Origin: Macrostomum lignano
Lineage: Eukaryota
Direction of reading: 5' to 3'
Length of the DNA stretch: 64,000 bases
Assembly: GCA_002269645.1 (NCBI GenBank)
Contig: NIVC01001091.1
Location: forward strand, 1 to 64,000
Shown: positions 22,169 through 61,000 of the stretch, piece after piece
Layout: every line of letters starts with the position of its first letter
Position numbering within the stretch: the first letter of the stretch is position 1
Made by a program: the position numbers and the translations under genes
The notes under the pieces: model-generated
What the model saw: only the letters and a program-made list of their open reading frames with translations
Database searches by the model: none
What the model was told of the DNA's origin: nothing

Positions 22169-23183
22169 GCTGCACCTAAGCATAGATAGAAATAGAATCT
22201 TAATGGGGAGGTTAGCAACAGCATAATGATTTTTTGAATATTAGATAGATAAACTCTAAGACCAGGGTTAGGGAGGTCTAAAGGGTGCCACCAAATTCAT
22301 TAATATCTAATTTATCAACTCTATTGATGAATTCAATTTATCTTACTATGCATTGTTGACAAATTTGGTTGCTTGACTAAATACTGTTAACTAATGTTAA
22401 AAATTAAAAGACAAAGCCTATTAAGATAAGAATATGCATATAAGATAACAAAGGCAAATGTTTTTTAATTAGGCCTAGGCCTAATATATATTTATTAATT
22501 ATTTTTACACACTGTTAAAACCTCAGAATTTTAAACTTTTTGAATTTTAATCCTAGAACTATAGGATTTATCTTTTTAATATCAAAATTTTCTCTTATTT
22601 ATATCAACATTTATAATCATTTAAAATAAATAATGTGATCTTATTAGGATAAAGTAGCATACTAAAATAAACATTAATAAAATAGCAATTATAAACAATT
22701 ATAAATTATAAAATTATGGTTGCTTAATTTTTTCAATGTAATGTATTTTATCAAAGGCCATTATTTTAAAGTCAATGTGTATTTTGCATATGAAATAAAT
22801 TATATAAAATTAAAAAGGCCTAGGGCCTATATAATCTAAAGAGCTAATCAGAGACAGATTAAGTATATTGCATAAAAGTTAATTGTTAATTAATAGACTC
22901 CCTCTCTTTTTTCTCCCTCCTTTCTTTTCCTATTCTCTTCCTCTCCTTTCTTTCTTCTCCCAATTTTTTATTTTTTGCATTTTTTATTTTGCAAATTACT
23001 TTGGCCGGCAGCCATTTCACCTGTCTAGTTTGGATGGGTCAGATAAGTATTGGGCATGTATGCATTAAGGACAGATATGATATTAGAAACCATTTAAAAA
23101 TTAAAGATAGATCAAAAGCCTGTACTAGAAAATGAAAGAAAATAAAGTTGTCAATGCACAATTTGTTTAGAAAAAAACTATTT

Positions 23184-23951
23184 TGTACTAGTGCTATGCC
23201 TTTATCATAGTATACTCGAATGTTCTTTCAATGTAATAACTGTATATTCGAATCTTTCTTAGAAACTGAATCTACGCGAACGCCAAATAATAGTTTGTTT
23301 TAATGCGCGAAATAAATTGGAGAATTATTTTTTTGTTTTAATCGTATGTGGGGAAAATCACTATATATAGGAGCGGTTTTGCGACAAATATACTCTAACT
23401 GTCTTTTACTCGTGAGCAAATAATTGCGAACAGAATAAGCAGTTCAATCTAAACCATTTCAAAGTCTTTGAGCTAAATAGCGACTTATTTATTTGCAAAA
23501 CCTGTGAAACGATTCTAAGAAATTTGCTAAGAGAAGGGAATTGGGACTAATTCTTGGAGATATACCAAGAGAGGCGCCGTGACCCTCTAGTCTCGGTGAA
23601 CGCCCGATTAGGACTATACACTAATACATATACCAGTACTAGACCGCTCAGGCCATAAGCTACTAGAACGCTACCAGAAAGCAAGCCATAAGCTACCAGA
23701 AACGCTACTAAGAACGCTACCAGAAACGCTACTAAGAACGCTACCCAGAAATATTTAAATGAAATTCTAAGAAATAGTTAGGGAGTAAAAGCAAGTATAG
23801 TCAGGATAACTGTAGTTGGCAAATCGGTGGGATTAAAATTGATAAAGTAAGAGGTGAAAGGCCTGTAACAACTTTGGTGGCAGCTCGTAGGATATTTAAT
23901 AAACACTAATAGTTAGAAGTTTAGAAAGACAGAGCCAAAAGGCCTGTCACA
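23184..23951 (+). repeat. 5' LTR
   Basis: TGTACTAG...TGTCACA; same length as 31168-31935 and no difference found by eye. Confidence 0.95.
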
Positions 23952-23953
23952 GC

Positions 23954-23964
23954 TGGTGGCAGCG
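23954..23964 (+). other. Primer-binding site TGGTGGCAGCG (tRNA-Leu-like)
   Basis: 2 nt after the LTR; complementary to the CGCTGCCA-CCA 3' end typical of eukaryotic tRNA-Leu(AAG/TAG). Confidence 0.8.
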
Positions 23965-24052
23965 ATAAGGATTAGAGAAACGGCGCGAACTCTTAAAGCT
24001 AGATTCAGAAGAATTCCGAAGAATAATTTGAAAAGTTTTTCGTAGAGAAAAG

Positions 24053-25057
24053 ATGAATCAGAATCAGGCTAATGACGCCATCGCCATGCTGGCAGAAGAA
24101 TTGCGAAACCGACTAGAGATAGGGCCGATGAGACACGTTAAGATTCAGAAATTCACACCTACGCAAGACATTCGGATCTGGCTAACAGCCTTCGATCAGC
24201 GCTGTGAAGTAGAAGGGATAGATGAGGAACATAGGAAGCAGGAATTGCTAGCTAATCTGGACCTGTCCACTGCATTCGCAGCGGTACAGCGCCTAAATCT
24301 GCCCGAGGATCTTGAATACGAAGAGTTCAAAGAGCGACTGATTGAGCGATTCGGAAGAATCGGTAGTTCCGCAGAATTCAGAGAGGAGTTTCGTGGAAGA
24401 ATGCAAGGCAGAAATGAGCCTGTAGAGACTTTCGCAGACTGTTTGATCGAGCTGGCATCGCGTGCATTTCCGAATATGACGGTTGAGCAAAGGGAAGAAG
24501 AAATTGTTGAGCAATTCATCAAGGGAATCAGAATTCCGTCAGAGACCCGTGAGAAGCTAATCTTTGCGCAGCCAGGCAATTTACAAGAGGCTAGAAGAAT
24601 GCTAAGAAGGATGGAGGCTGCGTGGAACATGTCTCACAAGAATGTCAACATGAGAATGGCCAAAGGCGAAGGCGAGAGTGAGCAGAAGGCAGATCAGGAG
24701 AAGCTTGAGGACATCATCAAGAAGCAGAGAGCAGAGTTAGAGCAACAGAAGAAGGCGATTGAGGAGCTGATGGAAGAGAAGAGAGCTAGCCGTCAGCAGT
24801 ATCATCCGCAGAATCAATATCAAACGTACGCTCAGGTCGCTGGACCGCCGCAGCAGCCGAGATATCGGCCGCAGCAGCAGCAGCAGCAGCAGCCAGTATG
24901 GCGCGGTCAGCCTCAGTTCAACAGGCAGCCACAGCAACAGCAGCAGCCTCGAGCCTGCTACAATTGCGGGAAGCTTGGCCACATGGCGAGGAATTGCCAG
25001 AGCGCTAGGCCAAACGGTCAGCGAGTGGTGAACTACCAGAAGCAGCAGGGAAACTGA
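24053..25057 (+). CDS. gag: Gag (334 aa) with capsid-like region, Gln-rich linker and CCHC knuckle
   Basis: CYNCGKLGHMARNC; YEEFKERLIERFG; QGRNEPVETF..L..LA..AFP; EQFIKGI. Confidence 0.93.
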   Translation: MNQNQANDAIAMLAEELRNRLEIGPMRHVKIQKFTPTQDIRIWLTAFDQRCEVEGIDEEHRKQELLANLDLSTAFAAVQRLNLPEDLEYEEFKERLIERFGRIGSSAEFREEFRGRMQGRNEPVETFADCLIELASRAFPNMTVEQREEEIVEQFIKGIRIPSETREKLIFAQPGNLQEARRMLRRMEAAWNMSHKNVNMRMAKGEGESEQKADQEKLEDIIKKQRAELEQQKKAIEELMEEKRASRQQYHPQNQYQTYAQVAGPPQQPRYRPQQQQQQQPVWRGQPQFNRQPQQQQQPRACYNCGKLGHMARNCQSARPNGQRVVNYQKQQGN

Positions 25058-25091
25058 GTAGCGAGGGCCGCTTTGCGAGGCCACGTCCCTC
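25048..25091 (+). promoter_or_regulatory. -1 ribosomal frameshift signal (G GGA AAC + downstream stem-loop)
   Basis: XXXYYYZ heptamer at 25048-25054 in the gag frame. GAGGG (25063-67) can pair with CCCTC (25087-91). The -1 frame has no stop between the site and pol. Confidence 0.8.
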
Positions 25092-28000
25092 TAGCAACAA
25101 TTATCGCGAATTTCAGGCCTCTGAATTTGTAAATAATGCGTATCGAAGTAATGCCAGACAGTATAGTAACAGCAGAACGCATGCCGAATTCAATAAATTT
25201 CACAGAAAACCAAATAAAAATTTTGCACCTCGTGTACATACGCCGCTTGCACCTAGTCATGCGTCTGCCAGCCACAGTAGGCCGAATAATAAAGTACAAA
25301 GTACAGTAATTCCGAATGAGCATTCGAAGAAAGAATTCGAAGAAGATACGGAGAGAAAAGGACGAGAAGCAGTCGTCAATGGAATGCTAAGAAACCGAAA
25401 GGTCTACTTCCTGCTAGACACAGGAGCTGGACATAATTTCCTAAGCAAGAGTACTTGGAAAAAGATGTTCAGAAGTGATGAAATTGAGTTGACTACTAGA
25501 AGAGTGACTACGTTTGACGGATCAAGTGTGCGAATTGAAGGAGAAGTCAGAACGAAAATACGATTCGGAGAGATAGAGATTGAGACAGAGTTCCTGCTGT
25601 GCAATCACGAGTGTGACGACATACTCGGGATGGAGTTCTTCATGAACTTCTGCGACAGCATCAGCCTTTCCAGAGGAATGCTTGTATTAAAAGAAGGGAC
25701 CTGCATCCCAATTCAGTTTACAAAATTACCCGTACGGGTTTGCCGAATCTACAGCCATAACAGCGTGACTATACCAGCGAATAGCGCTCTTCGAATTCCA
25801 ATTAGAATGACTAAAGGATCAGAAGCTAACTATGGAACGCCAATGGTCATTGACACCATTGGAGGCCAAGTGACTACGAAGAGAAATTCCTTAGAGATGA
25901 TTCCTACTCTAGTGACCATGAACGATGGAACAGGAGTAGTGGAAATAATCAATCGACAGAATGACGATATCAGACTGACAAGATCTACGCTGATTGGAGT
26001 GGCCAAACCCTTGAAGCCAGGAGGCCTGGCCTACTCTATTAACAGCAAAGGTCAAGCCAGTTCAGATGATGCAATTAGGACAGTGAAGAGTGAAGAGAGT
26101 GAGTACAGCTGGATAAACGAGATCGATTTAGGAGAAGAGCTAACATCAGAACAGAAAGGACTAGTGATCGATTTGCTAAAGAAGAACAAGGAAGCATTTT
26201 CGCAGACCAACCAAGACATGGGTCTCACCCATCTTGTGACTCATGAAATATCTCTAAAAGATACCACACCGGTCAGGATTCCAACACGCAGAATTCCACC
26301 ACATCTGCAAAAGCAAGTAGATGAGCAACTTGACGACATGCTTGCTAAGAACCTGATCCGACCATGCTATAGTACTTATTCAACGCCGCTAGTGATAGTT
26401 CCTAAGAAGGATGGATCCATAAGAATCGTCAGTGACTTCAGGGTCCTGAACTCGAGAGTGAACTATTACCCATATCCATTGCCGAACATACAAGAGACTT
26501 TCGCTCAGTTATCTGGAAGCAAGTACTTCAGTAGTCTAGATTTAAACTCTGGATACTGGCAGGTACCTATCAAAGAAGAGCACAAATTTATGACAGCCTT
26601 TTCCACCCTTACCAGAGGCCAGTTCGAATATCAGGTCATGGCACAGGGCTTGTCTAACGCTCCTGGTACATTCCAGAGACTCATGAATTTGGTGCTGATG
26701 GGAATACAGCACAAATTCGCGATGTCGTACATAGATGATATTGTGACATACTCAGAGAAATTCGAAGATCATCTCGGTCATCTGCAAGAAGTATTTCAAA
26801 GACTAATCTCAGCAGGACTAAAATTAAGACCAAAAAAGTGCAACTTGTTTCAGAAAGAGCTAAAGTACTTAGGGCATATCGTAGGAAGAGAAGGGATTAG
26901 AACAGACCCAGCTAAGATCGAAGCGATACAGTCATGGCCTACGCCGAAAGAGGTCAAAGAACTGCGAAGCTTCTTGGGGTTGTGTAACTACTACTGCAGA
27001 TTTGTAAAGAATTACGCAGAGGCAGCGCATCCACTATTTCAATTAACTAAGAAAGGTATTCAAAACTTTAGGGAAAAGTGGACCAAGAAGCATGACGAGG
27101 CTTTCCAGCAGTTGAAGCAGAGAATGACATCGACCGAAGTACTCGCGTACCCAGAATTCTCAGAGAACGAAAATGTTCGAATGGTATTAGACACCGACGC
27201 AAGCGAAGACCGAATTGGTGCTTGCCTGGGTCAAATACAATCGGACGGGGTTGAAAGACCCATTGCTTACTTCAGCAGAGCAATGAAAGAGTCTGAGAAA
27301 AGATATCCGATTACCAGAAAAGAGCTATTAGCGCTAGTAGATGGCATGAAACACTTCCGATTTTACCTAATTGGCAAAAGGTTTCTGGCCCGCACAGACC
27401 ACAAGGCAATTCTATGGCTATTGCGCCAGACCGAAGCCCAAGGAATTCTCGGAAGATGGATTGAAAGACTGAGTGAGTTTCAATACGATATTGAGCACCG
27501 CAGTGGAGCCAAACATTCCAACGCAGATGGATTGTCACGGCGACCCTCGGAACCACCAGTTGAACAGAAAGATGCTAAGATCAAAGAGAATGAGGCCGAA
27601 ATTCCTAAGATGACAATAGAAACCAGCGCTGTGAAACAAGTCGTGACTAGCAGCGTGAAAGATCAGAGTTGCCAGACCGACTTCACAGAAGAGTATGAAT
27701 CAGATTCCGAAGACGAATTCGCAGATGATGAATACGAAGATGCCAGTGATCAGTTCGAAGATGATGATGACATCTATGAAGATGCAAGAGACTATTTCGA
27801 AGAGGAAGAGACAGTGTGCAGAAAGCTTCTGACAGATTACCTCTCGGTTCCATTGAAGAAAGAGCAGCTGACTTCAGCGCAGCATGCTGATCCTTCTATA
27901 AGAACCTTGATGGACTGGAAGCAGAAGAAAGTGCGTGAGCCGAAGTTACCAGAAAATGCATCCGGAGAATTGAAGAAGATGGTTAAGTTCTACGAGCAGA

Positions 28001-29571
28001 TGAAAATCGAAGATGAAATGCTGACAGTCAGTGAAGACGGTAAACGAAAAGTAGTATTGCCAGAGAAGATTGAGAAAGATGTATTCAAAGAGCTGCACGA
28101 CAGTCCGCTAGCAGGCCACCTAGGTCGGGACAAGACGCTACAGCGAGTCCGAGACCGATTCTGGAGGCCGGGGTTAGTGACTGCAGTTGAAAAGTACATC
28201 GCAGAATGCATCCCGTGTCTGGAAAGTAAAAGCGGAAATAAAGTACGAGCACCGGTGCAGACCTTTCCGATATGTGAGCCATTCCATCGGCTGCACATAG
28301 ATTTGATCGGTCCGATATCAAAGGAAAGCAGAAGAGGACACCGATATGTACTTACTGTTGTAGATAGTACAACGAAGTTCCCATTCGCTTTTCCGGTTCG
28401 GAATCAGAAATCCGCTACTGTTATCAAAACGATACAAGAGAGAATTTTCAGCGAGTATGGCCAGTGCCAATGGATACACACTGATAATGGCAAGACTTTT
28501 GTAAGTCACCAATTTCAGGCATTCTGTACCCTATACGGCATTAAGCATACTTGCACTACGCCTTACCATGCTCAGAGTAACGGGCTTGTCGAAAGATTTA
28601 ACAAGCAAATTAAATCGATTGTAACCTGTTTGATTGAAAAGGATCATTCAGATTGGGATCTGCTCATACCCGCCGCTTTGGTAGCTGTGCGAACCAGTGT
28701 TAATCAAACTACTGGGTTCACACCACACTACTTACTATTCGGGAGAGAAGCAGATTTGCCAATAGATAGCATTGTGAAAAGGCCAAGACTATACCGAGAC
28801 TATCCTAGTTATGTGCTGGATCATGCGAAGAGAATCGAGGAGACAAAAGCAATTGTGCGAAGACAACTCGAAAAGGTGCGAGAGAAAAGGCAAGAGGACG
28901 AAGTTGAGAATCGTCAGCCTAAAAATGTGCCAGTTGGCTGTCTCGCTCTCATCAACAACCCTCAACTTCACCAAGAGGAGAGCCACAAGTTTCATCGAAA
29001 GAAGAGAGCAGCCTATCGAGTACTTGCGAAGATATCAGACACAGTGTTCCGTGTGCAAAGAGAAATCAATGGCGAAAGGAGCGGAGAAAAACTATTAGTA
29101 CATAGAAATAATCTGACTCCAGTGCCGAAATCCGAAATTGATTTACCAGAGGAAATTAATAATAATTTAAAACCAGCACCAGTGTCAACTAAGAAGAAGG
29201 AACCGCCGAAGCCGAAGAAAAGAATTTGCCATAGACAAAAAGAAGTTAGAATTCTAGAAGTTCAAATTTTAGAGGAAAGCTCAGACGAAGAAAACAGAAT
29301 TCAATGGAGAGTATTCGCAGATCCGAATTCGCAGAGTGAAAACGAAGGAAATGAAGAATTGAACAGTGAGAATACAGAGAGAGCGACTGACTCAGATGAG
29401 CCATCAGAAGAAGAGGAAGGAGCATTAGAGTTAGAGGAGGAACGTGCTAACACAGTAGGAGGCTATAATTTGAGACCCCGAGACAATAGAGTGACTCAGC
29501 AAGAGAGAGAGAGAGAAGGCGCGACAGGATTTGTGCCCCGAAGGCGCTATGCGAGATATTTAGCACCTTAA
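25048..29571 (+). CDS. pol: Pol (protease, reverse transcriptase, RNase H, integrase); probably made as a Gag-Pol fusion; first in-frame ATG at 25384
   Basis: LLDTGA protease; LDLNSGYWQ and YIDD in RT; LDTDAS..ELLA..TDH in RNase H; H-x6-H..C-x2-C, HIDLIGP, TDNG, SNGLVERFN and GFTPHYLLFG in integrase. Uninterrupted 1395-aa ORF. Confidence 0.96.
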   Translation, partial: GKLSSEGRFARPRPSSNNYREFQASEFVNNAYRSNARQYSNSRTHAEFNKFHRKPNKNFAPRVHTPLAPSHASASHSRPNNKVQSTVIPNEHSKKEFEEDTERKGREAVVNGMLRNRKVYFLLDTGAGHNFLSKSTWKKMFRSDEIELTTRRVTTFDGSSVRIEGEVRTKIRFGEIEIETEFLLCNHECDDILGMEFFMNFCDSISLSRGMLVLKEGTCIPIQFTKLPVRVCRIYSHNSVTIPANSALRIPIRMTKGSEANYGTPMVIDTIGGQVTTKRNSLEMIPTLVTMNDGTGVVEIINRQNDDIRLTRSTLIGVAKPLKPGGLAYSINSKGQASSDDAIRTVKSEESEYSWINEIDLGEELTSEQKGLVIDLLKKNKEAFSQTNQDMGLTHLVTHEISLKDTTPVRIPTRRIPPHLQKQVDEQLDDMLAKNLIRPCYSTYSTPLVIVPKKDGSIRIVSDFRVLNSRVNYYPYPLPNIQETFAQLSGSKYFSSLDLNSGYWQVPIKEEHKFMTAFSTLTRGQFEYQVMAQGLSNAPGTFQRLMNLVLMGIQHKFAMSYIDDIVTYSEKFEDHLGHLQEVFQRLISAGLKLRPKKCNLFQKELKYLGHIVGREGIRTDPAKIEAIQSWPTPKEVKELRSFLGLCNYYCRFVKNYAEAAHPLFQLTKKGIQNFREKWTKKHDEAFQQLKQRMTSTEVLAYPEFSENENVRMVLDTDASEDRIGACLGQIQSDGVERPIAYFSRAMKESEKRYPITRKELLALVDGMKHFRFYLIGKRFLARTDHKAILWLLRQTEAQGILGRWIERLSEFQYDIEHRSGAKHSNADGLSRRPSEPPVEQKDAKIKENEAEIPKMTIETSAVKQVVTSSVKDQSCQTDFTEEYESDSEDEFADDEYEDASDQFEDDDDIYEDARDYFEEEETVCRKLLTDYLSVPLKKEQLTSAQHADPSIRTLMDWKQKKVREPKLPENASGELKKMVKFYEQMKIEDEMLTVSEDGKRKVVLPEKIEKDVFKELHDSPLAGHLGRDKTLQRVRDRFWRPGLVTAVEKYIAECIPCLESKSGNKVRAPVQTFPICEPFHRLHIDLIGPISKESRRGHRYVLTVVDSTTKFPFAFPVRNQKSATVIKTIQERIFSEYGQCQWIHTDNGKTFVSHQFQAFCTLYGIKHTCTTPYHAQSNGLVERFNKQIKSIVTCLIEKDHSDWDLLIPAALVAVRTSVNQTTGFTPHYLLFGREADLPIDSIVKRPRLYRDYPSYVLDHAKRIEETKAIVRRQLEKVREKRQEDEVENRQPKNVPVGCLALINNPQLHQEESHKFHRKKRAAYRVLAKISDTVFRVQREINGERSGEKLLVHRNNLTPVPKSEIDLPEEINNNLKPAPVSTKKKEPPKPKKRICHRQKEVRILEVQILEESSDEENRIQWRVFADPNSQSENEGNEELNSENTERATDSDEPSEEEEGALELEEERANTVGGYNLRPRDNRVTQQEREREGATGFVPRRRYARYLAP

Positions 29572-29820
29572 ACCATGACGTAAGCAATTTCCCATAAGAA
29601 ACAGTGTTAAATAGTTAAATTTCCGTATTGGAATTACTTATCTGCTTATAAAATTTGACATGCTGTACATAGAGCGAATCTGTAAATACCATATTAATCT
29701 ACAAAATGCGATCTTTAATTTGATACTTTACTCAAGAAAATTTATCAAAAAATAAAAAAGTTATAAAAATAAATAGAAAATCCATAAAAAATTAGTTGTC
29801 AAATCTGTCAAATCTGGCAT

Positions 29821-29957
29821 GCCCCGCCCCACGCGCGAGGGGAGTGCTTCGAAGAGGTCCAGTTTTTCGGCCCGCCAGCCTATAAATACGAGCTCCCCGC
29901 AGGCCCCACAGATCCCATAGCTCACTGCTAGCTTCCTTTCTATTCTAAGAGTCATTC
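29821..29957 (+). promoter_or_regulatory. Putative internal promoter / splice acceptor for ORF3
   Basis: GC box CCCCGCCCC (29822-30), TATAAATA (29881-88), pyrimidine tract + AG (29948-49), TCATTC Inr-like (29952-57), ATG at 29970. Confidence 0.55.
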
Positions 29958-29969
29958 GAAGAGAACCAT

Positions 29970-30875
29970 ATGGATAACTCAGTCGACATTCTGCAAGAGT
30001 TAATCGGTGACCTGTCCGAAGAGATTGAGCCTCAGCCGGAGCCTAATGTTGACGAGAACGAGGCGCCGCTACGTTGTCCAACAAGACCAAAGGCGCCTGG
30101 TGTAAGCAACAAAAGACCGAGGGCATCGCCACGAGCATCATCGCCTTGCCGCCAATTAAACGTGGATGGCCCAGAGCAAAAGCGAGCCGCCTTGCTGACA
30201 ACACAGGCAGCGGCGCCCATTCGTTCGTACGTTATCAAGGCCACGCCAGGCTCGTCAACAGCAGGAAGAACGCAGCAGCTAGTGTCGCCGCCATCTGCCC
30301 CGCCATCGAAGAAGCCTCCAGCACCGCGGCGGAAGAAGCCCGAGGCCGCGCCAACAACGGCTCAACAGCCGCCGAGTCTGCCGGCAGCTCCGCAGCCAGT
30401 TTCACTGCCGAACCAGCAGCCAGCTCAACAGTCACCGAGTCTGCAGGCAGTTCCGCAGCTAGCTCCACAGCCAGCTCTGCAGCCGAGTCAACAACCAGCT
30501 TCGCAGCCGCCGACACCGCAGCAAGACTATCATCGAATTGTCCGAAAGCTTGTAGAGACTCGTGGATCTGAGGTCGAGAAATTGCACTTCCATATTGAGC
30601 AGTACTCGCTGAAGGTCGCGTACCATCGATCTGACATGCGGCAGCGATATCCTCAAGGGTCTCAGATCTGGCAGCACCTGAAGTTCCTTAGGGAACAGTT
30701 CAGCCACCAAGAAGCGGTTGCGATTCTGCAAGATGTCGCCCATCGTATCCAAAGGGCCAGGCAAGTCAACCCGCCACCTTCGCTAGCTGTACTAGACGAG
30801 GAGTACAACTGGTTCTTCTCTCAAATCGGCTGGCCTTATTACCGTGATCTACCTGAACCATGCAAATTTATTTGA
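29970..30875 (+). CDS. Retrotransposon accessory ORF3 (301 aa), not Env; function unknown
   Basis: Intact sense ORF between pol and the 3' LTR. Acidic N-terminal helix, basic NLS-like clusters, Pro/Gln/Ala-rich middle and a roughly 115-aa ordered-looking C-terminus; no signal peptide or TM segment. Confidence 0.8.
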   Translation: MDNSVDILQELIGDLSEEIEPQPEPNVDENEAPLRCPTRPKAPGVSNKRPRASPRASSPCRQLNVDGPEQKRAALLTTQAAAPIRSYVIKATPGSSTAGRTQQLVSPPSAPPSKKPPAPRRKKPEAAPTTAQQPPSLPAAPQPVSLPNQQPAQQSPSLQAVPQLAPQPALQPSQQPASQPPTPQQDYHRIVRKLVETRGSEVEKLHFHIEQYSLKVAYHRSDMRQRYPQGSQIWQHLKFLREQFSHQEAVAILQDVAHRIQRARQVNPPPSLAVLDEEYNWFFSQIGWPYYRDLPEPCKFI

Positions 30876-31154
30876 GCTGAACTATTGAGGTGAACTAACT
30901 TTTGCGTTGCCTTTAATAACAATTTTGCCTTTTATAATACTTTTATAATAGTTCGTTTTGCTTCCATAATAGTTCTCACTTTAATGGTTTACCTACATAA
31001 TAGTTCTATCACAACCATTTTATGCACCAATTGTTTTAGCACTGAATTGTGTTTTCTGCACCTTGCTTTGCACCTTTTCACCTGCATTTTCCTACGATAT
31101 CAATTTTTTCACTGTATACATATAATATAGTATTTCGTTCAAAATTTGATATAT

Positions 31155-31166
31155 AGAGGAGGAAAG
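31155..31166 (+). other. Polypurine tract AGAGGAGGAAAG
   Basis: 1 nt before the 3' LTR. Confidence 0.9.
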
Positions 31167-31167
31167 T

Positions 31168-31935
31168 TGTACTAGTGCTATGCCTTTATCATAGTATACT
31201 CGAATGTTCTTTCAATGTAATAACTGTATATTCGAATCTTTCTTAGAAACTGAATCTACGCGAACGCCAAATAATAGTTTGTTTTAATGCGCGAAATAAA
31301 TTGGAGAATTATTTTTTTGTTTTAATCGTATGTGGGGAAAATCACTATATATAGGAGCGGTTTTGCGACAAATATACTCTAACTGTCTTTTACTCGTGAG
31401 CAAATAATTGCGAACAGAATAAGCAGTTCAATCTAAACCATTTCAAAGTCTTTGAGCTAAATAGCGACTTATTTATTTGCAAAACCTGTGAAACGATTCT
31501 AAGAAATTTGCTAAGAGAAGGGAATTGGGACTAATTCTTGGAGATATACCAAGAGAGGCGCCGTGACCCTCTAGTCTCGGTGAACGCCCGATTAGGACTA
31601 TACACTAATACATATACCAGTACTAGACCGCTCAGGCCATAAGCTACTAGAACGCTACCAGAAAGCAAGCCATAAGCTACCAGAAACGCTACTAAGAACG
31701 CTACCAGAAACGCTACTAAGAACGCTACCCAGAAATATTTAAATGAAATTCTAAGAAATAGTTAGGGAGTAAAAGCAAGTATAGTCAGGATAACTGTAGT
31801 TGGCAAATCGGTGGGATTAAAATTGATAAAGTAAGAGGTGAAAGGCCTGTAACAACTTTGGTGGCAGCTCGTAGGATATTTAATAAACACTAATAGTTAG
31901 AAGTTTAGAAAGACAGAGCCAAAAGGCCTGTCACA
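31168..31935 (+). repeat. 3' LTR
   Basis: Copy of 23184-23951 at a constant offset of 7984. Confidence 0.95.
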
Positions 31936-32620
31936 ATTTAATTGCTTTATAAAAGTTTTTCTTTCACATTACTAAGTATATCAAGTATATTAAAAAAATC
32001 TAATAGATTTATAGCAAACAATAAATTAAATTGTTTCAAAAGCAGATGACCAAGTTTAATACTATGATTTTATTTTTCTGATATCCCAGTTGTAACAGAT
32101 TTGTCTCCCAATTTTTCAACATTTAAAATTTGAGAATTAGTTCTATTTTAGCTTTATCCTTAATGCATGCAAGAGAAGAGATCTTTATTGTTCTTTTCTT
32201 AAATTTCAATGCAAAAGCTAAAAGTAATGAGTAGTAATAGTGAGTTGAAAGTGTCCACTTCTTGTGGATATACCCAAGAAATATTTTCTTGTTTAAAGTA
32301 ATTTAAAATACAAAACTACAGTAGAAGCAAAAACTTGAAACTAACAAACTGGTATTTCTATAGTTGTAGCCACTGGAGCAGAATCTGCTTTAGATTTTAG
32401 CATAGTTACCATAGCAGTCACCTATTGCCAATAGTTAAAATTAGAACACAAATATTAGTTAGACTTATTGTGACTATGAGAATATTTAACTCTACACCAG
32501 AAATAAAAACTAGACATTTACAAGAATCATATAAATATTGGCTTTTATTGCAGCTTGTATATTATCTGTATAAGCAATTAGTTCGATTACTAGCTTAATA
32601 AATAAAACAACCAACTAGCC

Positions 32621-35458
32621 ATGAGCGGCAGTGCAGCAGTGGCAGCCTCAGCCGAGCCAGAGAAGCCAGCAGAGCCCAAGGAGGCCGAAGCCGATTCTGG
32701 AGCTGTTCGTAAGCCGAACGATTCTCGATTTCATCAGCAGAGGCTGCCCGCATGGCAACCGTTGCTAACGGCCAAGCCCGCATTCTGTCTGTTCTTCATC
32801 ATCGGTATTGTGTTCGTACCATTGGGCGCGTTTTTGTTGACAACTTCTCAATCGGTTGAAGAGATCAAAACTGACTATACAAATTGCAAGAATGGATCCA
32901 GCTTCTGTCTGGCACTGGTAAGATATTAGCATTTGTCTGTTAGGTTCCCTGAGGCTGTAAGGCAGAGTTTTCTTTGTTGGAGGCGCCATTTCACTTGATT
33001 AGGCGCCATTTCAATTGACTAGGTGCCATTTCACTTGATTAGGCGCCATTTCACTTTGACTAGGCGCTATTTCAATTGATTAGGCGCCATTTTATTTCAC
33101 TAGGCGCCATTTTATTTGACTAGGCGCCATTTCACTTGACTAGGCGCCATTTCATTTCACCAGGCGCCATTTCATTTGACTAGGCGCCATTTCACTTGAC
33201 TAATCGCTCACGAAACAAAATATCACGATGATCTTCATTGTTTTATGCTTTCAAAGCTTGTGTCATTGAATGGTCTCTGCTGGTACAACCTAGCTGGTGT
33301 CCTTAGTTGACCTCTGTTGTTGCAACATGCTTATGTCCTGAAATGACCTTTTCCGGTATTAAAGCTGCTAATTGCCCACTGATTTCATTCCAGGTGAGCA
33401 CGCCAGAATACTACGCCAACTTCCAGAGCTGCCAGTGCATGGTGGACATCAAACTGCCCAACAACCTGACTGGCCAGGTGTACGCCTATTACGCCCTGAC
33501 TAATTTCTATCAGAATCATCGGCGCTACGTTAAAAGCCGGGACGACGGCCAACTGCAGGGCACAAAGATGGACAACCTGCTGGATGACTGCAATCCCTAT
33601 AGGCAGAGCCCGTCTGGCCAGTGGTACGCTCCCTGCGGCGCCATCGCTAATAGCCTATTCAACGACACGTTCCAGCTGTTCTACAACCGGCCAGACGGCT
33701 CCGGCCGGGTAGCCGTGCCCTGGACCTCTACCGGCATAGCCTGGGACAGCGATCGGGCCCGCAAATTTGCTCGCATCAGTTCGTGGAATAATACCGTTAA
33801 GCCTGTGAATTGGCCCAAGTCGGCTAAGGAGAGGAATGCCGACGCTTATCAGGTTAGGGTTGGCAACTTGACGAGGAGATCAGGTCCTTAAATGACCTTT
33901 CATATCAGTGACGTTTGTTTTGAAGTTTGTATGATTTTCGAGCCGGTGTCCTTGAATGACCTTTACAGGTGCAACTTGCACTGTGTCCTTGAATGACCTT
34001 TACAGGTGCAACTTGCACTATGTCCTTGAATGACCTTTACAGGTGCAACTTGCACTGTGTCCTTGAATGACCTTTACAGGTGCAACTTGCACTGTGTCCT
34101 TGAATGACCTTTACAGGTGCAACTTGCACTGTGTCCTTGAATGACCTTTACAGGTGCAACTTGCACTGTGTCCTTGAATGACCTTTACAGGTGCAACTTG
34201 CACTGTGTCCTTGAATGACCTTTACAGGTGCAACTTGCACTGTGTCCTTGAATGACCTTTACAGGTGCAACTTGCACTGTGTCCTTGAATGACCTTTACA
34301 GGTGCAACTTGCACTGTGTCCTTGAATGACCTTTACAGGTGCAACTTGCACTGTGTCCTTGAATGACCTTTACAGGTGCAACTTGCACTGTGTCCTTGAA
34401 TGACCTTTACAGGTGCAACTTGCACTGTGTCCTTGAATGACCTTTACAGGTGCAGCTTTCACTGTGTCCTTGAATGACCTTTACAGGTGCAACTTGCACT
34501 GTGTCCTTGAATGACCTTTACAGGTGCAACTTGCACTGTGTCCTTGAATAGCCTTCACTTTACCAGGCACTACTTCAACTTATGCGGTGTCTTTGAAAAA
34601 TGTTTTTAAAGTTCAATTTAGGCTTCTGTCATTAAAAGACCAATTTCTGGATCTACTTAAAATGGTTACAGGTATTCCCGCCTTCCTGATGGACCTACAT
34701 ACACGGTTGTAGATTTTACTGGTGTCCCTAATAATAATAATTGATTACACCTGCCCTATTGGGCCAGATGTGCAACCGACAGCTCAGCCGCAGCTATTGC
34801 GCGGCGAATCTGAAGGCTGCGTACGGCTGTTCAGTCCAAGGACTGGGGGCTCGCCGCACACACCCTCAATTACCCCAGCTAATGCTGGCACCCATTTTAC
34901 AACTGGGTGAACTGGAGCAATGCAGAGTTAAGTGTCTTGCTCAAGGACACAAATTGTTCCAGTGGGATCGGGAATCGAACCCCCGACGCTCTAACCACTA
35001 GGCTACATCCCATGGTGTCCCTAGATGACCTAAATTACCTGCTTAGTGTCTTTAAATGGTCTCTTTTCCACTGCAACATAGGCAAATCGATTGTCCTCAA
35101 ATAAGCTTATGTTTCGGCTTCCTTAACCCGTGCCCTTTAGGGTGACGAAGAGCTAATAGTCTGGATGCGAACCGCCGCCTTGCCATCGTTTCGCAAGCTG
35201 CACCGCATCATACAGCACGATTCGGCTGCAACGAATCTGTTCAAAGACGGCCTGCCTGCCGGCAACTATTCGCTAGTGGTTAACTACGCCTACCCTGTCA
35301 GCTCGTTTGCCGGCACCAAGTCTTTCATATTGACAACTTCAACTTGGCTGGGCGGCCGGAATCCCGCTCTCGGCATTATCTACCTGGTTGTTGGCTCTCT
35401 GCACGTTATTCTTGGCATCATCTTTGTGGGAGTTTTTCTCTACTCGAGAAAGAAGTGA
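32621..35458 (+). CDS. TMEM30A: CDC50/TMEM30 P4-ATPase flippase beta subunit (about 357 aa); exons 32621-32917, 33394-33852, 35141-35458
   Basis: FHQQRLPAWQP, YYALTNFYQNHRRYVKSRDD.QL, PCGAIANSLFNDTF, GIAWDSD, VWMRTAALPSFRKL, WLGGRNPALGI; splice phases are consistent. Confidence 0.93.
32983..33205. repeat. 20-21-bp minisatellite (TAGGCGCCATTTCACTTGAY)
   Basis: Direct reading; TMEM30 intron 1. Confidence 0.9.
33945..34550. repeat. 37-bp minisatellite (GTGTCCTTGAATGACCTTTACAGGTGCAACTTGCACT) x about 16
   Basis: Direct reading; TMEM30 intron 2. Confidence 0.95.
34729..35011 (-). mobile_element. tRNA-derived SINE, copy 3 (internal deletion in the tRNA head, (TTA)n tail)
   Basis: High similarity to 7759-8059. 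Confidence 0.85.
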
Positions 35459-52084: not shown

Positions 52085-55000
52085 GGGGAAGACAGACAGA
52101 GATCAGACAGGGGCAGACAGAAAGACAGACAGAAATCAGACAGGGGCAGACAGAAAGACAGACAGAGATCAGACAGGGGCAGACAGAAAGCCAGACAGAA
52201 ATCAGACAGGGGCAGACTGACAGACAGACAGAGATCAGACAGGGGCAGACAGACAGACAGACAGATATAAGACAGGGGCGGACAGAAAGACAGACAGAGA
52301 TCAGACAGGGGCAGACAGAAAGACAGACAGAGATCAGACAGGGGCAGACAGAAAGACAGACAGAGATCAGACAGGGGCAGACAGAAAGACAGACAGAGAT
52401 CAGACAGGGGCAGACAGACAGACAGAGACAGGCAGGGGGCAGACAGGCATGGGGCAGACAGGCATGGGGCAGACAGGCAGGGGGCAGACAGGCATGGGGC
52501 AGACAGGCATGGGGCAGACAGGCAGGGGCAGACAGGCATGGGGCAGACAGGCATGGGGCAGACAGGCATGAGGCAGACAGGCAGGGGCAGACAGGCAGGG
52601 GCAGACAGGCAGGGGGCAGACAGGCAGGGGGCAGACAGGCAGGGGCAGACAGGCAGGGGCAGACAGGCAGGGGGCAGACAGGCAGGGGGCAGACAGGCAG
52701 GGGCAGACAGGCAGGGGCAGACAGGCAGGAGCAGACAGGCATGGGGCAGACAGGCAGGGGGCTGACAGGCATGGGGCAGACAGGCATGGGGCAGACAGGC
52801 ATGGGGCAGACAGGCATGGGGCAGACAGGCAAGGGATACAGGCAGGAGCAGACAGGCATGGGGCAGACAGGCATGGAGCAGACAGGCATGGGGCAGACAG
52901 GCAAGGGATACAGGCATGGGGCAGACAGGCAGGGGGCTGACAGGCAGGGGATACAGGCAGGGGGCAGACAGGCATGGGGCAGACAGGCAAGGGATACAGG
53001 CAGGGGCAGACAGGCAGGGGGCTGACAGGCATGGGGCAGACAGGCAGGGGGCTGACAGGCAGGGGCAGACAGGCAGGGGATACAGGCATGGGGCAGACAG
53101 GCAGGGGCAGACAGGCAGGGGATACAGGCATGGGGCAGACAGGCAGGGGCTGACAGGCATGGGGCAGACAGGCAGGGGGCTGACAGGCAGGGGCAGACAG
53201 GCAGGGGATACAGGCATGGGGCAGACAGGCAGGGGGCAGACAGGCAAGGGATACAGGCAGGGGCAGACAGGCAGGGGGCTGACAGGCATGGGGCAGACAG
53301 GCAGGGGGCTGACAGGCAGGGGGCTGACAGGCAGGGGATACAGGCATGGGGCAGACAGGCAGGGGGCAGACAGGCAGGGGATACAGGCATGGGGCAGACA
53401 GGCAGGGGGCTGACAGGCATGGGGCAGACAGGCAGGGGGCTGACAGGCAGGGGGCAGACAGGCATGGGGCAGACAGGCAGGGGGCTGACAGGCAGGGGGC
53501 TGACAGGCAGGGGGCTGACAGGCAGGGGATACAGGCATGGGGCAGACAGGCAGGGGGCTGACAGGCATGGGGCAGACAGGCAGGGGGCTGACAGGCAGGG
53601 GGCAGACAGGCATGGGGCAGACAGGCAAGGGATACAGGCAGGGGCAGACAGGCAGGGGGCTGACAGGCATGGGGCAGACAGGCAGGGGGCTGACAGGCAG
53701 GGGCAGACAGGCAGGGGATACAGGCATGGGGCAGACAGGCAGGGGCAGACAGGCAGGGGATACAGGCATGGGGCAGACAGGCATGGGGCAGACAGGCAAG
53801 GGATACAGGCAGGGGCAGACAGGCAGGGGGCTGACAGGCATGGGGCAGACAGGCAGGGGGCTGACAGGCAGGGGCAGACAGGCAGGGGATACAGGCATGG
53901 GGCAGACAGGCAGGGGGCAGACAGGCAGGGGATACAGGCAGGGGCAGACAGGCAGGGGGCTGACAGGCAGGGGATACAGGCATGGGGCAGACAGGCAGGG
54001 GGCTGACAGGCATGGGATACAGGCAGGAGCAGACAGGCAGGGGGCTGACAGGCATGGGGCAGACAGGCAGGGGGCTGACAGGCAGGGGCTGACAGGCGGG
54101 GATACAGGCATGGGGCAGACAGGCAGGGGGCTGACAGGCATGGGGCAGACAGGCAGGGGGCTGACAGGCAGGGGGCAGACAGGCATGGGGCAGACAGGCA
54201 AGGGATACAGGCAGGGGCAGACAGGCAGGGGGCTGACAGGCATGGGGCAGACAGGCAGGGGGCTGACAGGCAGGGGCTGACAGGCAGGGGATACAGGCAT
54301 GGGGCAGACAGGCAGGGGGCTGACAGGCATGGGGCAGACAGGCAGGGGGCTGACAGGCAGGGGGCAGACAGGCATGGGGCAGACAGGCAGGGGGCTGACA
54401 GGCAGGGGGCTGACAGGCAGGGGATACAGGCATGGGACAGACAGGCAGGGGGCTGACAGGCATGGGGCAGACAGGCAGGGGGCTGACAGGCAGGGGGCAG
54501 ACAGGCATGGGACAGACAGGCAAGGGATACAGGCAGGGGCAGACAGGCAGGGGGCTGACAGGCATGGGGCAGACAGGCAGGGGGCTGACAGGCAGGGGCA
54601 GACAGGCAGGGGATACAGGCATGGGGCAGACAGGCAGGGGGCAGACAGGCAGGGGATACAGGCATGGGGCAGACAGGCAGGGGGCTGACAGGCATGGGGC
54701 AGACAGGCAGGGGGCTGAGAGGCAGGGGGCAGACAGGCAGGGGCTGACAGGCAGGGGGCAGACAGGCATGGGGCAGACAGGCAGGGGCAGACAGGCAGGG
54801 GGCTGACAGGCAGGGGATACAGGCATGGGGCAGACAGGCAGGGGGCTGACAGGCATGGGGCAGACAGGCAGGGGGCTGACAGGCAGGGGGCAGACAGGCA
54901 TGGGGCAGACAGGCAAGGGATACAGGCAGGGGCAGACAGGCAGGGGGCTGACAGGCATGGGGCAGACAGGCAGGGGGCTGACAGGCATGGGGCAGACAGG

Positions 55001-58000
55001 CAGGGGGCTGACAGGCAGGGGGCTGACAGGCAGGGGATACAGGCATGGGGCAGACAGGCAGGGGGCTGACAGGCATGGGATACAGGCAGGAGCAGACAGG
55101 CAGGGGGCTGACAGGCAGGGGGCTGACAGGCAGGGGATACAGGCATGGGGCAAACAGGCAGGGGATACAGGCATGGGGCAAACAGGCAGGGGGCTGACAG
55201 GCATGGGGCAGACAGGCAGGGGGCTGACAGGCAGGGGGCAGACAGGCATGGGGCAGACAGGCATGGGGCAGACAGGCATGAGGCAGACAGGCAGGGGCTG
55301 ACAGGCATGGGGCAGACAGGCAGGGGGCTGACAGGCATGGGGCAGACAGGCAGGGGATACAGGCATGGGACAGACAGGCAGGGGGCAGACAGGCAGGGGA
55401 TACAGGCATGGGGCAGACAGGCAGGGGGCTGACAGGCATGGGGCAGACAGGCAGGGGGCTGACAGGCAGGGGCAGACAGGCATGGGGCAGACAGGCATGG
55501 GGCAGACAGGCAGGGGGCTGACAGGCAGGGGGCTGACAGGCAGGGGATACAGGCATGGGGCAGACAGGCAGGGGGCTGACAGGCATGGGGCAGACAGGCA
55601 GGGGGCTGACAGGCATGGGGCAGACAGGCATGGGCAGACAGGCAGGGGCTGACAGGCAGGGGGCTGACAGGCAGGGGATACAGGCATGGGGCAGACAGGC
55701 AGGGGGCTGACAGGCATGGGGCAGACAGGCAGGGGGCTGACAGGCAGGGGGCAGACAGGCATGGGGCAGACAGGCAAGGGATACAGGCAGGGGCAGACAG
55801 GCAGGGGCTGACAGGCATGGGGCAGACAGGCAGGGGGCAGACAGGCAGGGGGCTGACAGGCAGGGGCAGACAGGCAGGGGATACAGGCATGGGGCAGACA
55901 GGCAGGGGGCTGACAGGCAGGGGCAGACAGGCAGGGGATACAGGCATGGGGCAGACAGGCAGGGGGCAGACAGGCAGGGGATACAGGCATGGGGCAGACA
56001 GGCATGGGGCAGACAGGCAAGGGATACAGGCAGGGGCAGACAGGCAGGGGGCTGACAGGCAGGGGGCAGACAGGCAGGGGGCTGACAGGCAGGGGCAGAC
56101 AGGCAGGGGATACAGGCATGGGGCAGACAGGCAGGGGGCAGACAGGCAGGGGATACAGGCATGGGGCAGACAGGCAGGGGGCTGACAGGCATGGGGCAGA
56201 CAGGCAGGGGGCTGACAGGCAGGGGGCAGACAGGCAGGGGGCTGACAGGCAGGGGGCTGACAGGCAGGGGATACATGCATGGGGCAGACAGGCAGGGGGC
56301 TGACAGGCATGGGGCAGACAGGCAGGGGGCTGACAGGCAGGGGCAGACAGGCAGGGGATACAGGCATGGGGCAGACAGGCAGGGGGCTGACAGGCAGGGG
56401 CAGACAGGCAGGGGATACAGGCATGGGGCAGACAGGCAGGGGGCAGACAGGCAGGGGATACAGGCATGGGGCAGACAGGCATGGGGCAGACAGGCAAGGG
56501 ATACAGGCAGGGGCAGACAGGCAGGGGGCTGACAGGCAGGGGCAGACAGGCAGGGGATACAGGCATGGGGCTGACAGGCAGGGGATACAGGCATGGGGCA
56601 GACAGGCAGGGGGCTGACAGGCATGGGGCAGACAGGCATGGGGCAGACAGGCAGGGGGCTGACAGGCAGGGGGCTGACAGGCAGGGGATACAGGCATGGG
56701 GCAGACAGGCAGGGGGCTGACAGGCATGGGGCAGACAGGCAGGGGGCTGACAGGCAGGGGCAGAAAGGCATGGGGCAGACAGGCAAGGGATACAGGCAGG
56801 GGCAGACAGGCAGGGGGCTGACAGGCATGGGGCAGACAGGCAGGGGCTGACAGGCAGGGGCAGACAGGCAGGGGATACAGGCATGGGGCAGACAGGCAGG
56901 GGGCAGACAGGCAGGGGATACAGGCATGGGGCAGACAGGCATGGGGCAGACAGGCAAGGGATACAGGCAGGGGCAGACAGGCAGGGGGCTGACAGGCATG
57001 GGGCAGACAGGCAGGGGGCTGACAGGCAGGGGCAGACAGGCAGGGGATACAGGCATGGGGCAGACAGGCAGGGGGCAGACAGGCAGGGGGCTGACAGGCA
57101 GGGGGCAGACAGGCAGGGGGCTGACAGGCAGGGGGCAGACAGGCATGGGGCAGACAGGCAAGGGATACAGGCAGGGGCAGACAGGCAGGGGGCTGACAGG
57201 CATGGGGCAGACAGGCAGTGGGCTGACAGGCAGGGGCAGACAGGCAGGGGATACAGGCATGGGGCAGACAGGCAGGGGGCTGACAGGCATGGGGCAGACA
57301 GGCAGGGGGCTGACAGGCAGGGGCAGACAGGCATGGGGCAGACAGGCAGGGGGCTGACAGGCAGGGGGCTGACAGGCAGGGGATACAGGCATGGGGCAGA
57401 CAGGCAGGGGGCTGACAGGCATGGGGCAGACAGGCAGGGGGCTGACAGGCAGGGGATACAGGCATGGGGCAGACAGGCAGGGGGCTGACAGGCATGGGGC
57501 AGACAGGCAGGGGGCTGACAGGCAGGGGGCAGAAAGGCATGGGGCAGACAGGCAAGGGATACAGGCAGGGGCAGACAGGCAGGGGGCTGACAGGCATGGG
57601 GCAGACAGGCAGGGGGCTGACAGGCAGGGGCAGACAGGCAGGGGATACAGGCATGGGGCAGACAGGCAGGGGGCAGACAGGCAGGGGATACAGGCATGGG
57701 GCAGACAGGCATGGGGCAGACAGGCAAGGGATACAGGCAGGGGCAGACAGGCAGGGGGCTGACAGGCATGGGGCAGACAGGCAGGGGGCTGACAGGCAGG
57801 GGCAGACAGGCAGGGGATACAGGCATGGGGCAGACAGGCAGGGGGCAGACAGGCAGGGGGCTGACAGGCAGGGGCAGACAGGCAGGGGCTGACAGGCAGG
57901 GGGCAGACAGGCATGGGGCAGACAGGCAAGGGATACAGGCAGGGGCAGACAGGCAGGGGGCTGACAGGCATGGGGCAGACAGGCAGTGGGCTGACAGGCA

Positions 58001-61000
58001 GGGGCAGACAGGCAGGGGATACAGGCATGGGGCAGACAGGCAGGGGGCTGACAGGCATGGGGCAGACAGGCAGGGGGCTGACAGGCAGGGGCAGACAGGC
58101 ATGGGGCAGACAGGCAGGGGGCTGACAGGCAGGGGGCTGACAGGCAGGGGATACAGGCATGGGGCAGACAGGCAGGGGGCTGACAGGCATGGGGCAGACA
58201 GGCAGGGGGCTGACAGGCAGGGGGCAGACAGGCATGGGGCAGACAGGCAAGGGATACAGGCAGGGGCAGACAGGCAGGGGGCTGACAGGCATGGGGCAGA
58301 CAGGCAGGGGGCTGACAGGCAGGGGCAGACAGGCAGGGGATACAGGCATGGGGCAGACAGGCAGGGGGCAGACAGGCAGGGGCTGACAGGCAGGGGGCAG
58401 ACAGGCATGGGGCAGACAGGCAGGGGGCTGACAGGCAGGGGGCTGACAGGCAGGGGATACAGGCATGGGGCAGACAGGCAGGGGGCTGACAGGCATGGGG
58501 CAGACAGGCAGGGGGCTGACAGGCAGGGGGCAGACAGGCATGGGGGCTGACAGGCAGGGGGCTGACAGGCAGGGGATACAGGCATGGGGCAGACAGGCAG
58601 GGGGCTGACAGGCATGGGATACAGGCAGGAGCAGACAGGCAGGGGGCTGACAGGCATGGGGCAGACAGGCAGGGGGCTGACAGGCAGGGGGCTGACAGGC
58701 AGGGATACAGGCATGGGGCAAACAGGCAGGGGGCTGACAGGCATGGGGCAGACAGGCAGGGGGCTGACAGGCAGGGGGCAGACAGGCATGGGGCAGACAG
58801 GCAAGGGATACAGGCAGGGGCAGACAGGCAGGGGCTGACAGGCATGGGGCAGACAGGCAGGGGGCTGACAGGCATGGGGCAGACAGGCAGGGGATACAGG
58901 CATGGGGCAGACAGGCAGGGGGCAGACAGGCAGGGGATACAGGCATGGGGCAGACAGGCAGGGGGCTGACAGGCATGGGGCAGACAGGCAGGGGCTGACA
59001 GGCAGGGGGCAGACAGGCATGGGGCAGACAGGCATGGGGCAGACAGGCAGGGGGCTGACAGGCAGGGGGCTGACAGGCAGGGGATACAGGCATGGGGCAG
59101 ACAGGCAGGGGGCTGACAGGCATGGGGCAGACAGGCAGGGGGCTGACAGGCAGGGGGCAGACAGGCATGGGGCAGACAGGCAAGGGATACAGGCAGGGGC
59201 AGACAGGCAGGGGGCAGACAGGCAGGGGGCTGACAGGCAGGGGGCTGACAGGCAGGGGATACAGGCATGGGGCAGACAGGCATGGGGCAGACAGGCAGGG
59301 GGCTGACAGGCATGGGGCAGACAGGCAGGGGGCTGACAGGCAGGGGGCAGACAGGCATGGGGCAGACAGGCAAGGGATACAGGCAGGGGCAGACAGGCAG
59401 GGGGCAGACAGGCAGGGGGCTGACAGGCAGGGGGCTGACAGGCAGGGGATACAGGCATGGGGCAGGCAGGCAGGGGCTGACAGGCAGGGGATACAGGCAT
59501 GGGGCAGACAGGCATGGGGCAGACAGGCAAGGGATACAGGCAGGGGCAGACAGGCAGGGGGCTGACAGGCATGGGGCAGACAGGCAGGGGGCTGACAGGC
59601 AGGGGCAGACAGGCAGGGGATACAGGCATGGGGCAGACAGGCAGGGGGCAGACAGGCAGGGGATACAGTCATGGGGCAGACAGGCAGGGGGCTGACAGGC
59701 ATGGGGCAGACAGGCAGGGGGCTGACAGGCAGGGGGCAGACAGGCATGGGGCAGACAGGCAAGGGATACAGGCAGGGGCAGACAGGCAGGGGGCTGACAG
59801 GCAGGGGCAGACAGGCAGGGGATACAGGCATGGGGCTGACAGGCAGGGGATACAGGCATGGGGCAGACAGGCAGGGGGCTGACAGGCATGGGGCAGACAG
59901 GCAGGGGCTGACAGGCAGGGGCAGACAGGCATGGGGCAGACAGGCAAGGGATACAGGCAGGGGCAGACAGGCAGGGGGCTGACAGGCATGGGGCAGACAG
60001 GCAGGGGGCTGACAGGCATGGGGCAGACAGGCAGGGGGCTGACAGGCAGGGGATACAGGCATGGGGCAGACAGGCAGGGGCTGACAGGCATGGGATACAG
60101 GCAGGAGCAGACAGGCAGGGGGCTGACAGGCATGGGGCAGACAGGCAGGGGCTGACAGGCAGGAGGCTGGCAGGCAGGGGATACAGGCATGGGGCAAACA
60201 GGCAGGGGGCTGACAGGCATGGGGCAGACAGGCAGGGGGCTGACAGGCAGGGGGCAGACAGGCATGGGGCAGACAGGCAAGGGATACAGGCAGGGGCAGA
60301 CAGGCAGGGGGCTGACAGGCATGGGGCAGACAGGCAGGGGGCTGACAGGCATGGGGCAGACAGGCAGGGGGCTGACAGGCAGGGGGCAGACAGGCAAGGG
60401 ATACAGGCAGGGGCAGACAGGCAGGGGCAGACAGGCAAGGGATACAGGCATGGGGCAGACAGGCAAGGGATTCAGGCAGGGGCAGACAGGCAAGGGATAC
60501 AGGCAGGGGCAGACAGGCAAGGGATACAGGTAGGGGCAGACAGGCAAGGGATACAGGCAGGGGCAGACAGGCAAGGGATACAGGCAGGGGCAGACAGGCA
60601 AGGGATACAGGCAGGGGCAGACAGGCAAGGGATACAGGTAGGGGCAGACAGGCATGGGGCAGACAGGCAGGGGCAGACAGGCAGGGGCAGACAGGCAAGG
60701 GATACAGGCAGGGGCAGACAGGCAAGGGATACAGGCAGGGGCAGACAGGCAAGGGATACAGGCAGGGGCAGACAGGCAAGGGATACAGGTAGGGGCAGAC
60801 AGGCATGGGGCAGACAGGCAGGGGCAGACAGGCAGGGGCAGACAGGCAGGGGCAGACAGGCAAGGGATACAGGCAGGGGCAGACAGGCAAGGGGCAGACA
60901 GGCAGGGGCAGACAGGCAGGGGCAGACAGGCAGGGGCAGACAGGCAGGGGCAGACAGGCAAGGGATACAGGCAGGGGCAGACAGGCAAGGGATACAGGTA

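Follow-up and report, generated by a model that had tools for sequence, protein, structure and literature searches.

A short arginine motif resembling nucleosome-binding peptides in the integrase tail of a Macrostomum lignano Gypsy retrotransposon

In prototype foamy virus, Gag binds chromatin through a peptide, GGYNLRPRTYQPQRYG, in which the anchor arginine, R540, directly follows the residues YNL (PMC12125541, Table 1). The chromatin-binding sequence comprises residues 535-550, for which the same paper cites the structure 5MLU; R540 contacts E61, D90 and E92 of H2A, Y537 and L539 contact Y57 and A60 of H2A and V41 and V45 of H2B (Y537 also Q44 of H2B), and Y549 contacts the C-terminus of H3 (PMC9040877). 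The CENP-C motif is RxxRxxxxPLxYW (PMC4830207), and motifs of this type put their second arginine on the nucleosome acidic patch and their aromatics on the C-terminus of CENP-A, as exemplified by R527 and F535 of KNL2 (PMC10015371). Here we describe a Gypsy long terminal repeat (LTR) retrotransposon in the first 64,000 nucleotides of contig NIVC01001091.1 of Macrostomum lignano (assembly GCA_002269645.1, forward strand), a stretch referred to below as the window. The integrase of this element ends in a tail that carries GGYNLRPR, identical to the first eight residues of the foamy Gag peptide.

Chromoviruses, which have a chromodomain or CR motif, also carry a chromatin-engaging module at the integrase C-terminus (PMC10984392, PMC12477314); their module is a folded reader of histone marks, whereas the Gypsy motif is short, linear and would address the nucleosome face. 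For chromatin engagement without a chromodomain, independent mechanisms must exist (PMC10984392). The arginine-anchor principle is found in LANA of Kaposi's sarcoma-associated herpesvirus, IE1 of human cytomegalovirus and p12 of murine leukemia virus (MLV), none of which is an integrase, and in the available text of the acidic-patch review that lists them the string "retrotranspos" occurs 0 times and no retrotransposon protein is named (PMC9040877). A literature search that covered few subscription journals and no supplements found no paper on a retrotransposon integrase with a motif of the acidic-patch or CENP-C-like kind, nor is such a motif mentioned in the available text of PMC2836005, PMC5072296 or PMC12801592 (on the LTR elements of this host). 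Among integrase tails, that of MLV docks BET proteins (PMC4027182) and that of Ty5 has Sir4 as its tethering partner (PMC12159745). Like the motif described here, the tethers of MLV, Ty1 and Ty5 are short motifs in an unstructured integrase C-terminus, but they bind host adaptors at particular loci, whereas the partner proposed for the Gypsy motif is the histone core itself. The adaptor of the Ty1 tail is reportedly AC40 of RNA polymerase III.

The relevant parts of Pol, all on the plus strand, are:
25009..29571 (+), pol frame, 1520 amino acids (aa), stop-free, -1 frame relative to gag
28060..29121 (+), folded part of the integrase (PF17921, PF00665, PF22938)
28060-28233 (+), H2C2 zinc domain of the integrase (PF17921)
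28279-28569 (+), integrase catalytic core (PF00665)
29014-29121 (+), integrase C-terminal domain, aa 1336-1371 (PF22938, score under the curated cut-off)
29122..29568 (+), integrase tail, 149 aa, aa 1372-1520, basic and then acidic
29305..29307 (+), tail tryptophan W62, the same in all 12 family representatives, within a patch that is acidic and then reads IxW
29458..29481 (+), GGYNLRPR, Pol residues 1484-1491 of 1520, context NTVGGYNLRPRDNRV
29464-29475 (+), conserved core Y-N-x-R, with the proposed anchor arginine codon at 29473-29475
29527..29550 (+), GFVPRRRY, a second basic-aromatic patch near the C-terminus

GGYNLRPR is in frame. It lies about 115 residues past the folded integrase, after an acidic spacer (of the 62 residues ahead of it, 23 are D/E and 4 are K/R), and 37 residues before Pol ends. 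No other Y.LR.R occurs in any of the six frames of the window, about 0.002 occurrences being expected in the tail from its composition. The original prediction had described the tail as disordered and chromodomain-less. By composition the tail is disorder-like, 63% of its residues being disorder-promoting, against 47% in the core, and a Pfam scan of the tail gave zero matches, chromodomain included, while the identical scan detects PF00385 in two other proteins, P0203 and P0210. The element therefore lacks the C-terminal chromodomain by which chromoviruses are recognised. The foamy Gag peptide that the original prediction had given was correct, as was its anchor after YNL, which is R540. The last 54 residues gave no match to solved structures (chains of at least 20 residues) at E-values up to 10. 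The mid-tail acidic patch followed by I-x-W (29280-29310, +) is a second candidate linear motif in the tail.

The integrase core, searched against the M. lignano genome, had 136 scored matches, from which the 30 best and 20 spanning lower identities were taken; 41 of the sampled loci have 65-100% integrase identity and nine have 46-51%. The conservation among relatives on which the original prediction had staked itself is present, YN[LFT]R being found in 39 of the 41 closer loci (37 in frame and two past a frameshift, with two lacking it). Across 12 family representatives, whose tails measure 142-204 aa, the invariant residues are V1, P2, S4, W62, Y115, N116 and R118, and no others. One may also consider that the motif has no protein function, being either a chance likeness or a DNA or RNA signal under the frame, where the YN codons read TATAAT, and the GG and PR flanks behind the eight-of-eight match with foamy Gag do vary, even inside the element's own family. 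However, the three invariant residues use synonymous codons (TAT/TAC for Y, AAT/AAC for N and AGA/AGG/CGC/CGT for R), and therefore the constraint acts on the protein and the DNA signal is rejected. The enrichment over shuffles and the absence from control regions given below further argue against this explanation, which we consider extremely improbable; it is largely refuted for the Y-N-x-R core and still stands for the GG flank only.

The octamer as a whole, to which the original prediction had attached its meaning, did not survive as a conserved unit: among the best 30 of 40 tail-end DNA matches, 24 read ENRYNFRMT, five GGYNLRPR (the window included) and one neither, and none of 87 distant tails has the exact octamer. 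On these comparisons the exact match is a lucky variant of a genuine four-residue core. Families at 84-86% identity have YNLRPR preceded by H, Q or G, and those at 65-74% have YNTRRQ, YNTRSQ or YNLRPP. GFVPRRRY, which is possibly a displaced P-x-R-Y half of the motif, is kept in families at 84-100% identity and missing at 65-74%. At 46-51% identity YN[LFT]R was found in 0 of nine loci, six of which terminate in RPxRxRxxPxRL. Neither an RxxL degron nor a PY import signal is conserved here, and both readings were rejected because the -1 residue varies among G, R, Q, H and P.

For more distant Gypsy integrases we took the best 120 of 241 and the best 150 of 94,798 database matches, obtained with queries free of the motif. 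From 264 proteins examined, 168 were excluded (62 multi-integrase models, 50 early-ending matches, 34 with reverse transcriptase (RT) after the integrase, 19 with tails under 25 residues and three with tails over 450 residues) and nine near-duplicates were removed, leaving the 87 tails, each compared with 2000 shuffles of the whole tail or of 20-residue blocks. Y.LR.R occurs in nine of the 87, against 0.09 (whole shuffle) or 0.13 (block shuffle) expected, and no shuffle out of 2000 reaches this number; reversed, F-for-Y and K-for-R control patterns have no enrichment. By density, there are nine occurrences in 9,415 tail residues and three in the 80,819 residues of the rest of the same proteins. 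Two tails, YNLRQTIRQPERYG of P0073 and GYNLRPRHTIQPPQRYG of P0270, are like the whole foamy peptide, the former with 9 of 14 residues identical in a shared register. Hence the suggestion that YxLRxR tails are widespread in Gypsy elements stands as far as the enrichment goes, yet this is a minority form, scarce in the other sets given below, and a different one is commoner.

That commoner form is RxxRxxxxPxx[FYWL], which is found in 18 of the 87 tails against 0.7-1.0 expected, although the pattern was defined post hoc on these very tails. In sets not used for its definition it occurs in nine of 31 metagenome tails (0.29 expected) and six of nine tails of other families in the M. lignano genome (0.26 expected), numbers reached by none of 1000 shuffles, and in one of 14 tails of shorter proteins, for which there is no shuffle comparison. 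The 31 metagenome tails came from 79 loci scanned with a Pol alignment, the nine own-genome tails from 18 loci and the 14 from 58 shorter proteins. The +3 arginine is common to the Y and R forms, and the window's own tail has no RxxRxxxxP form. From these alignments the wider tail motif may be written as [Y/R]-x-x-R-x-x-x-x-(x)-P-x-[R/K]-aromatic, of which the window motif would be one form. Separately, the integrase tail of one metagenome locus (L095), which has neither chromodomain nor motif, ends in a cysteine/histidine pattern that we take to resemble a PHD finger.

Either form is present in 29 of the 87 tails, as opposed to 0 of 65 linkers between RNase H and integrase and 0 of 34 proteins with the integrase before RT. 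In a pooled set of 141 tails, in which chromodomains were called with a local profile (two were confirmed by Pfam, and degenerate ones may escape), either form occurs in 0 of 14 chromodomain tails and 48 of 127 others (Fisher p 0.0025, uncorrected for relatedness). The motif lies at a median of 18 residues from the C-terminus in the pooled tails. [LT]RS[RG], which we take to be similar to the LANA motif, occurs in 11 of the 87 tails (1.0 expected).

An alternative to histone binding is nuclear import, in which the basic motif would carry the integrase or the pre-integration complex inward via importin or transportin. The motif is indeed basic and lies within a disordered tail, the import signal of the Ty1 integrase is said to lie in its C-terminal region, and three families have R-x-H-P-Y ahead of NLR, which is like a PY signal. 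Yet the proline ahead of Y is unconserved, and whereas classical import signals favour lysine, lysine versions of the motif are absent or rare in the 87 tails (Y..K.R in 0, K..R....P in 0 and [RY]..K....P in two, as opposed to 22 with R). A lysine-rich stretch elsewhere in the window tail, KKKEPPKPKKR, separate from the motif, suits import better, and import leaves the exclusion by chromodomains unexplained; we therefore consider it unlikely.

Alternatively, the arginines might touch target DNA, linker DNA or element RNA at packaging, with histones uninvolved. Short arginine-rich motifs bind nucleic acids, and some of the tails read TRSGR or TRRGR, which to us is reminiscent of AT-hook cores. 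In contrast, a net-acidic stretch precedes the motif in 42 of 45 cases, and the fixed aromatic-arginine-proline-aromatic spacing and invariant Y-N suggest a shaped protein surface, so that nucleic-acid binding seems quite improbable.

Docking on a non-histone chromatin protein of the host, in the manner of the MLV integrase with BET proteins or the Ty1 integrase with RNA polymerase III, has precedent in that unstructured integrase tails serve as docking sites (PMC4027182), and the invariant W62 patch could be part of such a site. Still, recurrence over many lineages of the integrase tree better fits a universally conserved partner, and the spacing equals that of two known nucleosome-binding peptides, which makes this kind of docking a similarly improbable account of the motif.

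In comparison with foamy Gag, both motifs lie in the disordered C-terminal region of a retroelement protein for which tethering of the integration complex is proposed, and foamy Y537, L539 and R540 match Y, L and the anchor R of the window copy. They differ in that the foamy motif is on a spumavirus Gag and the Gypsy motif on the integrase in Pol, and the Gag of this element has neither Y.[LT]R nor RxxRxxxxP, the two motifs sought in it. Convergence of a short motif is at least as likely an origin of the likeness as common descent, for which no evidence was found. With the CENP-C motif and that of KNL2/M18BP1, the commoner Gypsy form shares in register R0, R3, P8 and a hydrophobic residue at 11, and its anchor-to-aromatic distance is 8, as between R527 and F535 of KNL2; P8 is absent from the window form, which starts with Y. 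In 18 aligned R-form tails position 12 is mostly G, L, E or D, and since the YW/WW pair is missing from the Gypsy tails, CENP-A specificity is not expected. The Gypsy motif thus resembles the anchors of foamy Gag and CENP-C and belongs to neither, being on no spumavirus Gag and having neither an in-register QPQRYG nor the YW pair.

The wider tail motif has the spacing of the whole foamy peptide and of the CENP-C motif, both of which have been solved with the anchor arginine on the acidic patch and an aromatic at the C-terminus of H3 or CENP-A. By analogy with them, we think that the motif probably tethers the intasome to the acidic patch of H2A-H2B by means of an arginine anchor. Following the foamy Gag-nucleosome structure, the +3 arginine would enter the pocket of H2A E61/D90/E92, the tyrosine (position 0) and the L, F or T at +2 would pack against H2A Y57/A60 and H2B V41/Q44/V45, and, in forms with a downstream P-x-R-aromatic, that half would reach the H3 C-terminus. 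An integrase multimer on the cDNA ends would carry several tails and could thereby grip nucleosome faces, holding the integration complex on chromatin, more as a general tether than as an address for particular loci, and perhaps also on mitotic chromosomes, as with foamy Gag. The H2A (EYLAAEVLE, NDEEL) and H2B (KVLRQV) encoded in the host's own genome keep the contact residues.

Several observations weigh against this tether. The majority of family copies (24 of 30) read YNFRMT and have no +5 arginine, and the +2 residue, F or T in many relatives, is T in the families at 70-74% identity. The window peptide has no in-register match to TYQPQRYG, the later half of the foamy peptide with Y544, P546 and Y549, and reads DNRVTQQER where foamy has QPQRYG (a stretch that P0073 and P0270 have wholly or nearly), and the window's PRRRY sits 15 residues beyond the place of the foamy half. 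In foamy Gag a positive charge at position 540 is enough for chromosome binding (PMC6042332), and therefore the preference for arginine is weak evidence. Y.LR.R occurs in only one of the 31 metagenome tails, a number attained by 41 of 1000 shuffles, where Y.LR is unenriched (336 of 1000), and in 0 of the nine tails of other own-genome families and 0 of the 14 tails of shorter proteins. In a FastTree tree of 104 integrase cores, the 17 tips labelled Y-type (a label wider than Y.LR.R) need eight changes (shuffled mean 16), which means that they are clustered, yet in about eight places of the tree, and counts therefore overstate independent events; some Y-type tips are well-supported sisters of R-type tails. 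The chromodomain contrast is phylogenetically non-independent as well, 79 of the 127 chromodomain-less tails (some truncated or mis-predicted) have neither form, and import and nucleic-acid binding are also roles that a short basic motif in a disordered tail can have.

The element that carries the motif is a complete Gypsy LTR retrotransposon spanning 23184-31935, with the following further features:
23180..23183 (+), left target-site duplication ATTT, the four bases being repeated at 31936-31939
23184..23951 (+), 5' LTR, 768 bp, identical to the 3' LTR over the full 768 bp
23954..23964 (+), primer-binding-site (PBS)-like TGGTGGCAGCG, its location and TGG start read directly
24053..25057 (+), gag, 334 aa, with a single CCHC zinc knuckle
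29970..30875 (+), third open reading frame, 301 aa, its N-terminal part rich in P and Q and its last domain, of about 110 aa, conserved
31155..31166 (+), polypurine tract
31168..31935 (+), 3' LTR
31936..31939 (+), right target-site duplication ATTT

Both LTRs have TG...CA ends and, together with the ATTT duplication, polypurine tract, PBS-like site and the order of gag followed by pol (protease, RT, RNase H, integrase), they identify the element as Ty3/gypsy, its domain order differing from that with the integrase before RT; the top database proteins among the matches listed are labelled M. lignano, at 99% identity. Five genome copies (one at L182:1430-1521, G000:C803) have a tRNA-like 3' end that is complementary to the PBS-like site over 11 bases, with no tRNA call from ARAGORN (two loci) or Rfam (one locus). 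Each LTR also has, about 70 bases from its end, a PBS-like word, TGGTGGCAGC (~23876-23885 and ~31860-31869), a near copy of the site that lies 3' of the 5' LTR at 23954. The linker of Pol between RNase H and integrase has a strongly acidic stretch dotted with Y/F (27690-27810, +).

The third open reading frame follows a TATAAA box at 29881-29886, and most of the relatives sampled, down to an integrase identity of about 50%, have a similar frame 3' of pol, disordered at the N-terminus and with a conserved domain of about 110 aa at the C-terminus. It belongs to no Pfam family and its best Atlas scores are at most 0.87, which makes them leads only, none being at least 0.9; it looks like a lineage-specific accessory gene. 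In some contigs (L012/L013 on G000:C2404, and others) copies lie in pairs about 7.9-8.6 kb apart on the same strand, consistent with tandem elements that have a common LTR or with assembly duplication.

Elsewhere in the window, a host exon at 32621-32917 (+), about 690 bases past the 3' LTR, encodes the peptide HQQRLPAWQP, which resembles the start of a CDC50/TMEM30 protein, although a Pfam search of this piece gave no match. A 10-kb purine-rich tandem array with a unit of 14-15 bases in about 714 copies occupies 52401-62649, and many shorter minisatellites are spread across the window; the long open frames in the 52401-62649 region are due to such repeats.

More broadly, we tentatively suggest that many chromodomain-less Gypsy elements may share a single family of C-terminal integrase motifs for the nucleosome face, ranging from foamy-Gag-like to CENP-C-like, which would be a default tether, replaced on chromodomain gain, and whose downstream aromatics could tune the preference for H3 or centromeric nucleosomes. 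If true, one motif of 12-16 residues would account for chromatin engagement in a large share of Gypsy elements (48 of the 127 sampled chromodomain-less tails) and would link this engagement to two solved structures. Retrotransposon integrases would then join the acidic-patch binders, and foamy viruses and Gypsy elements would have put one and the same tether on different proteins, Gag and the integrase respectively.

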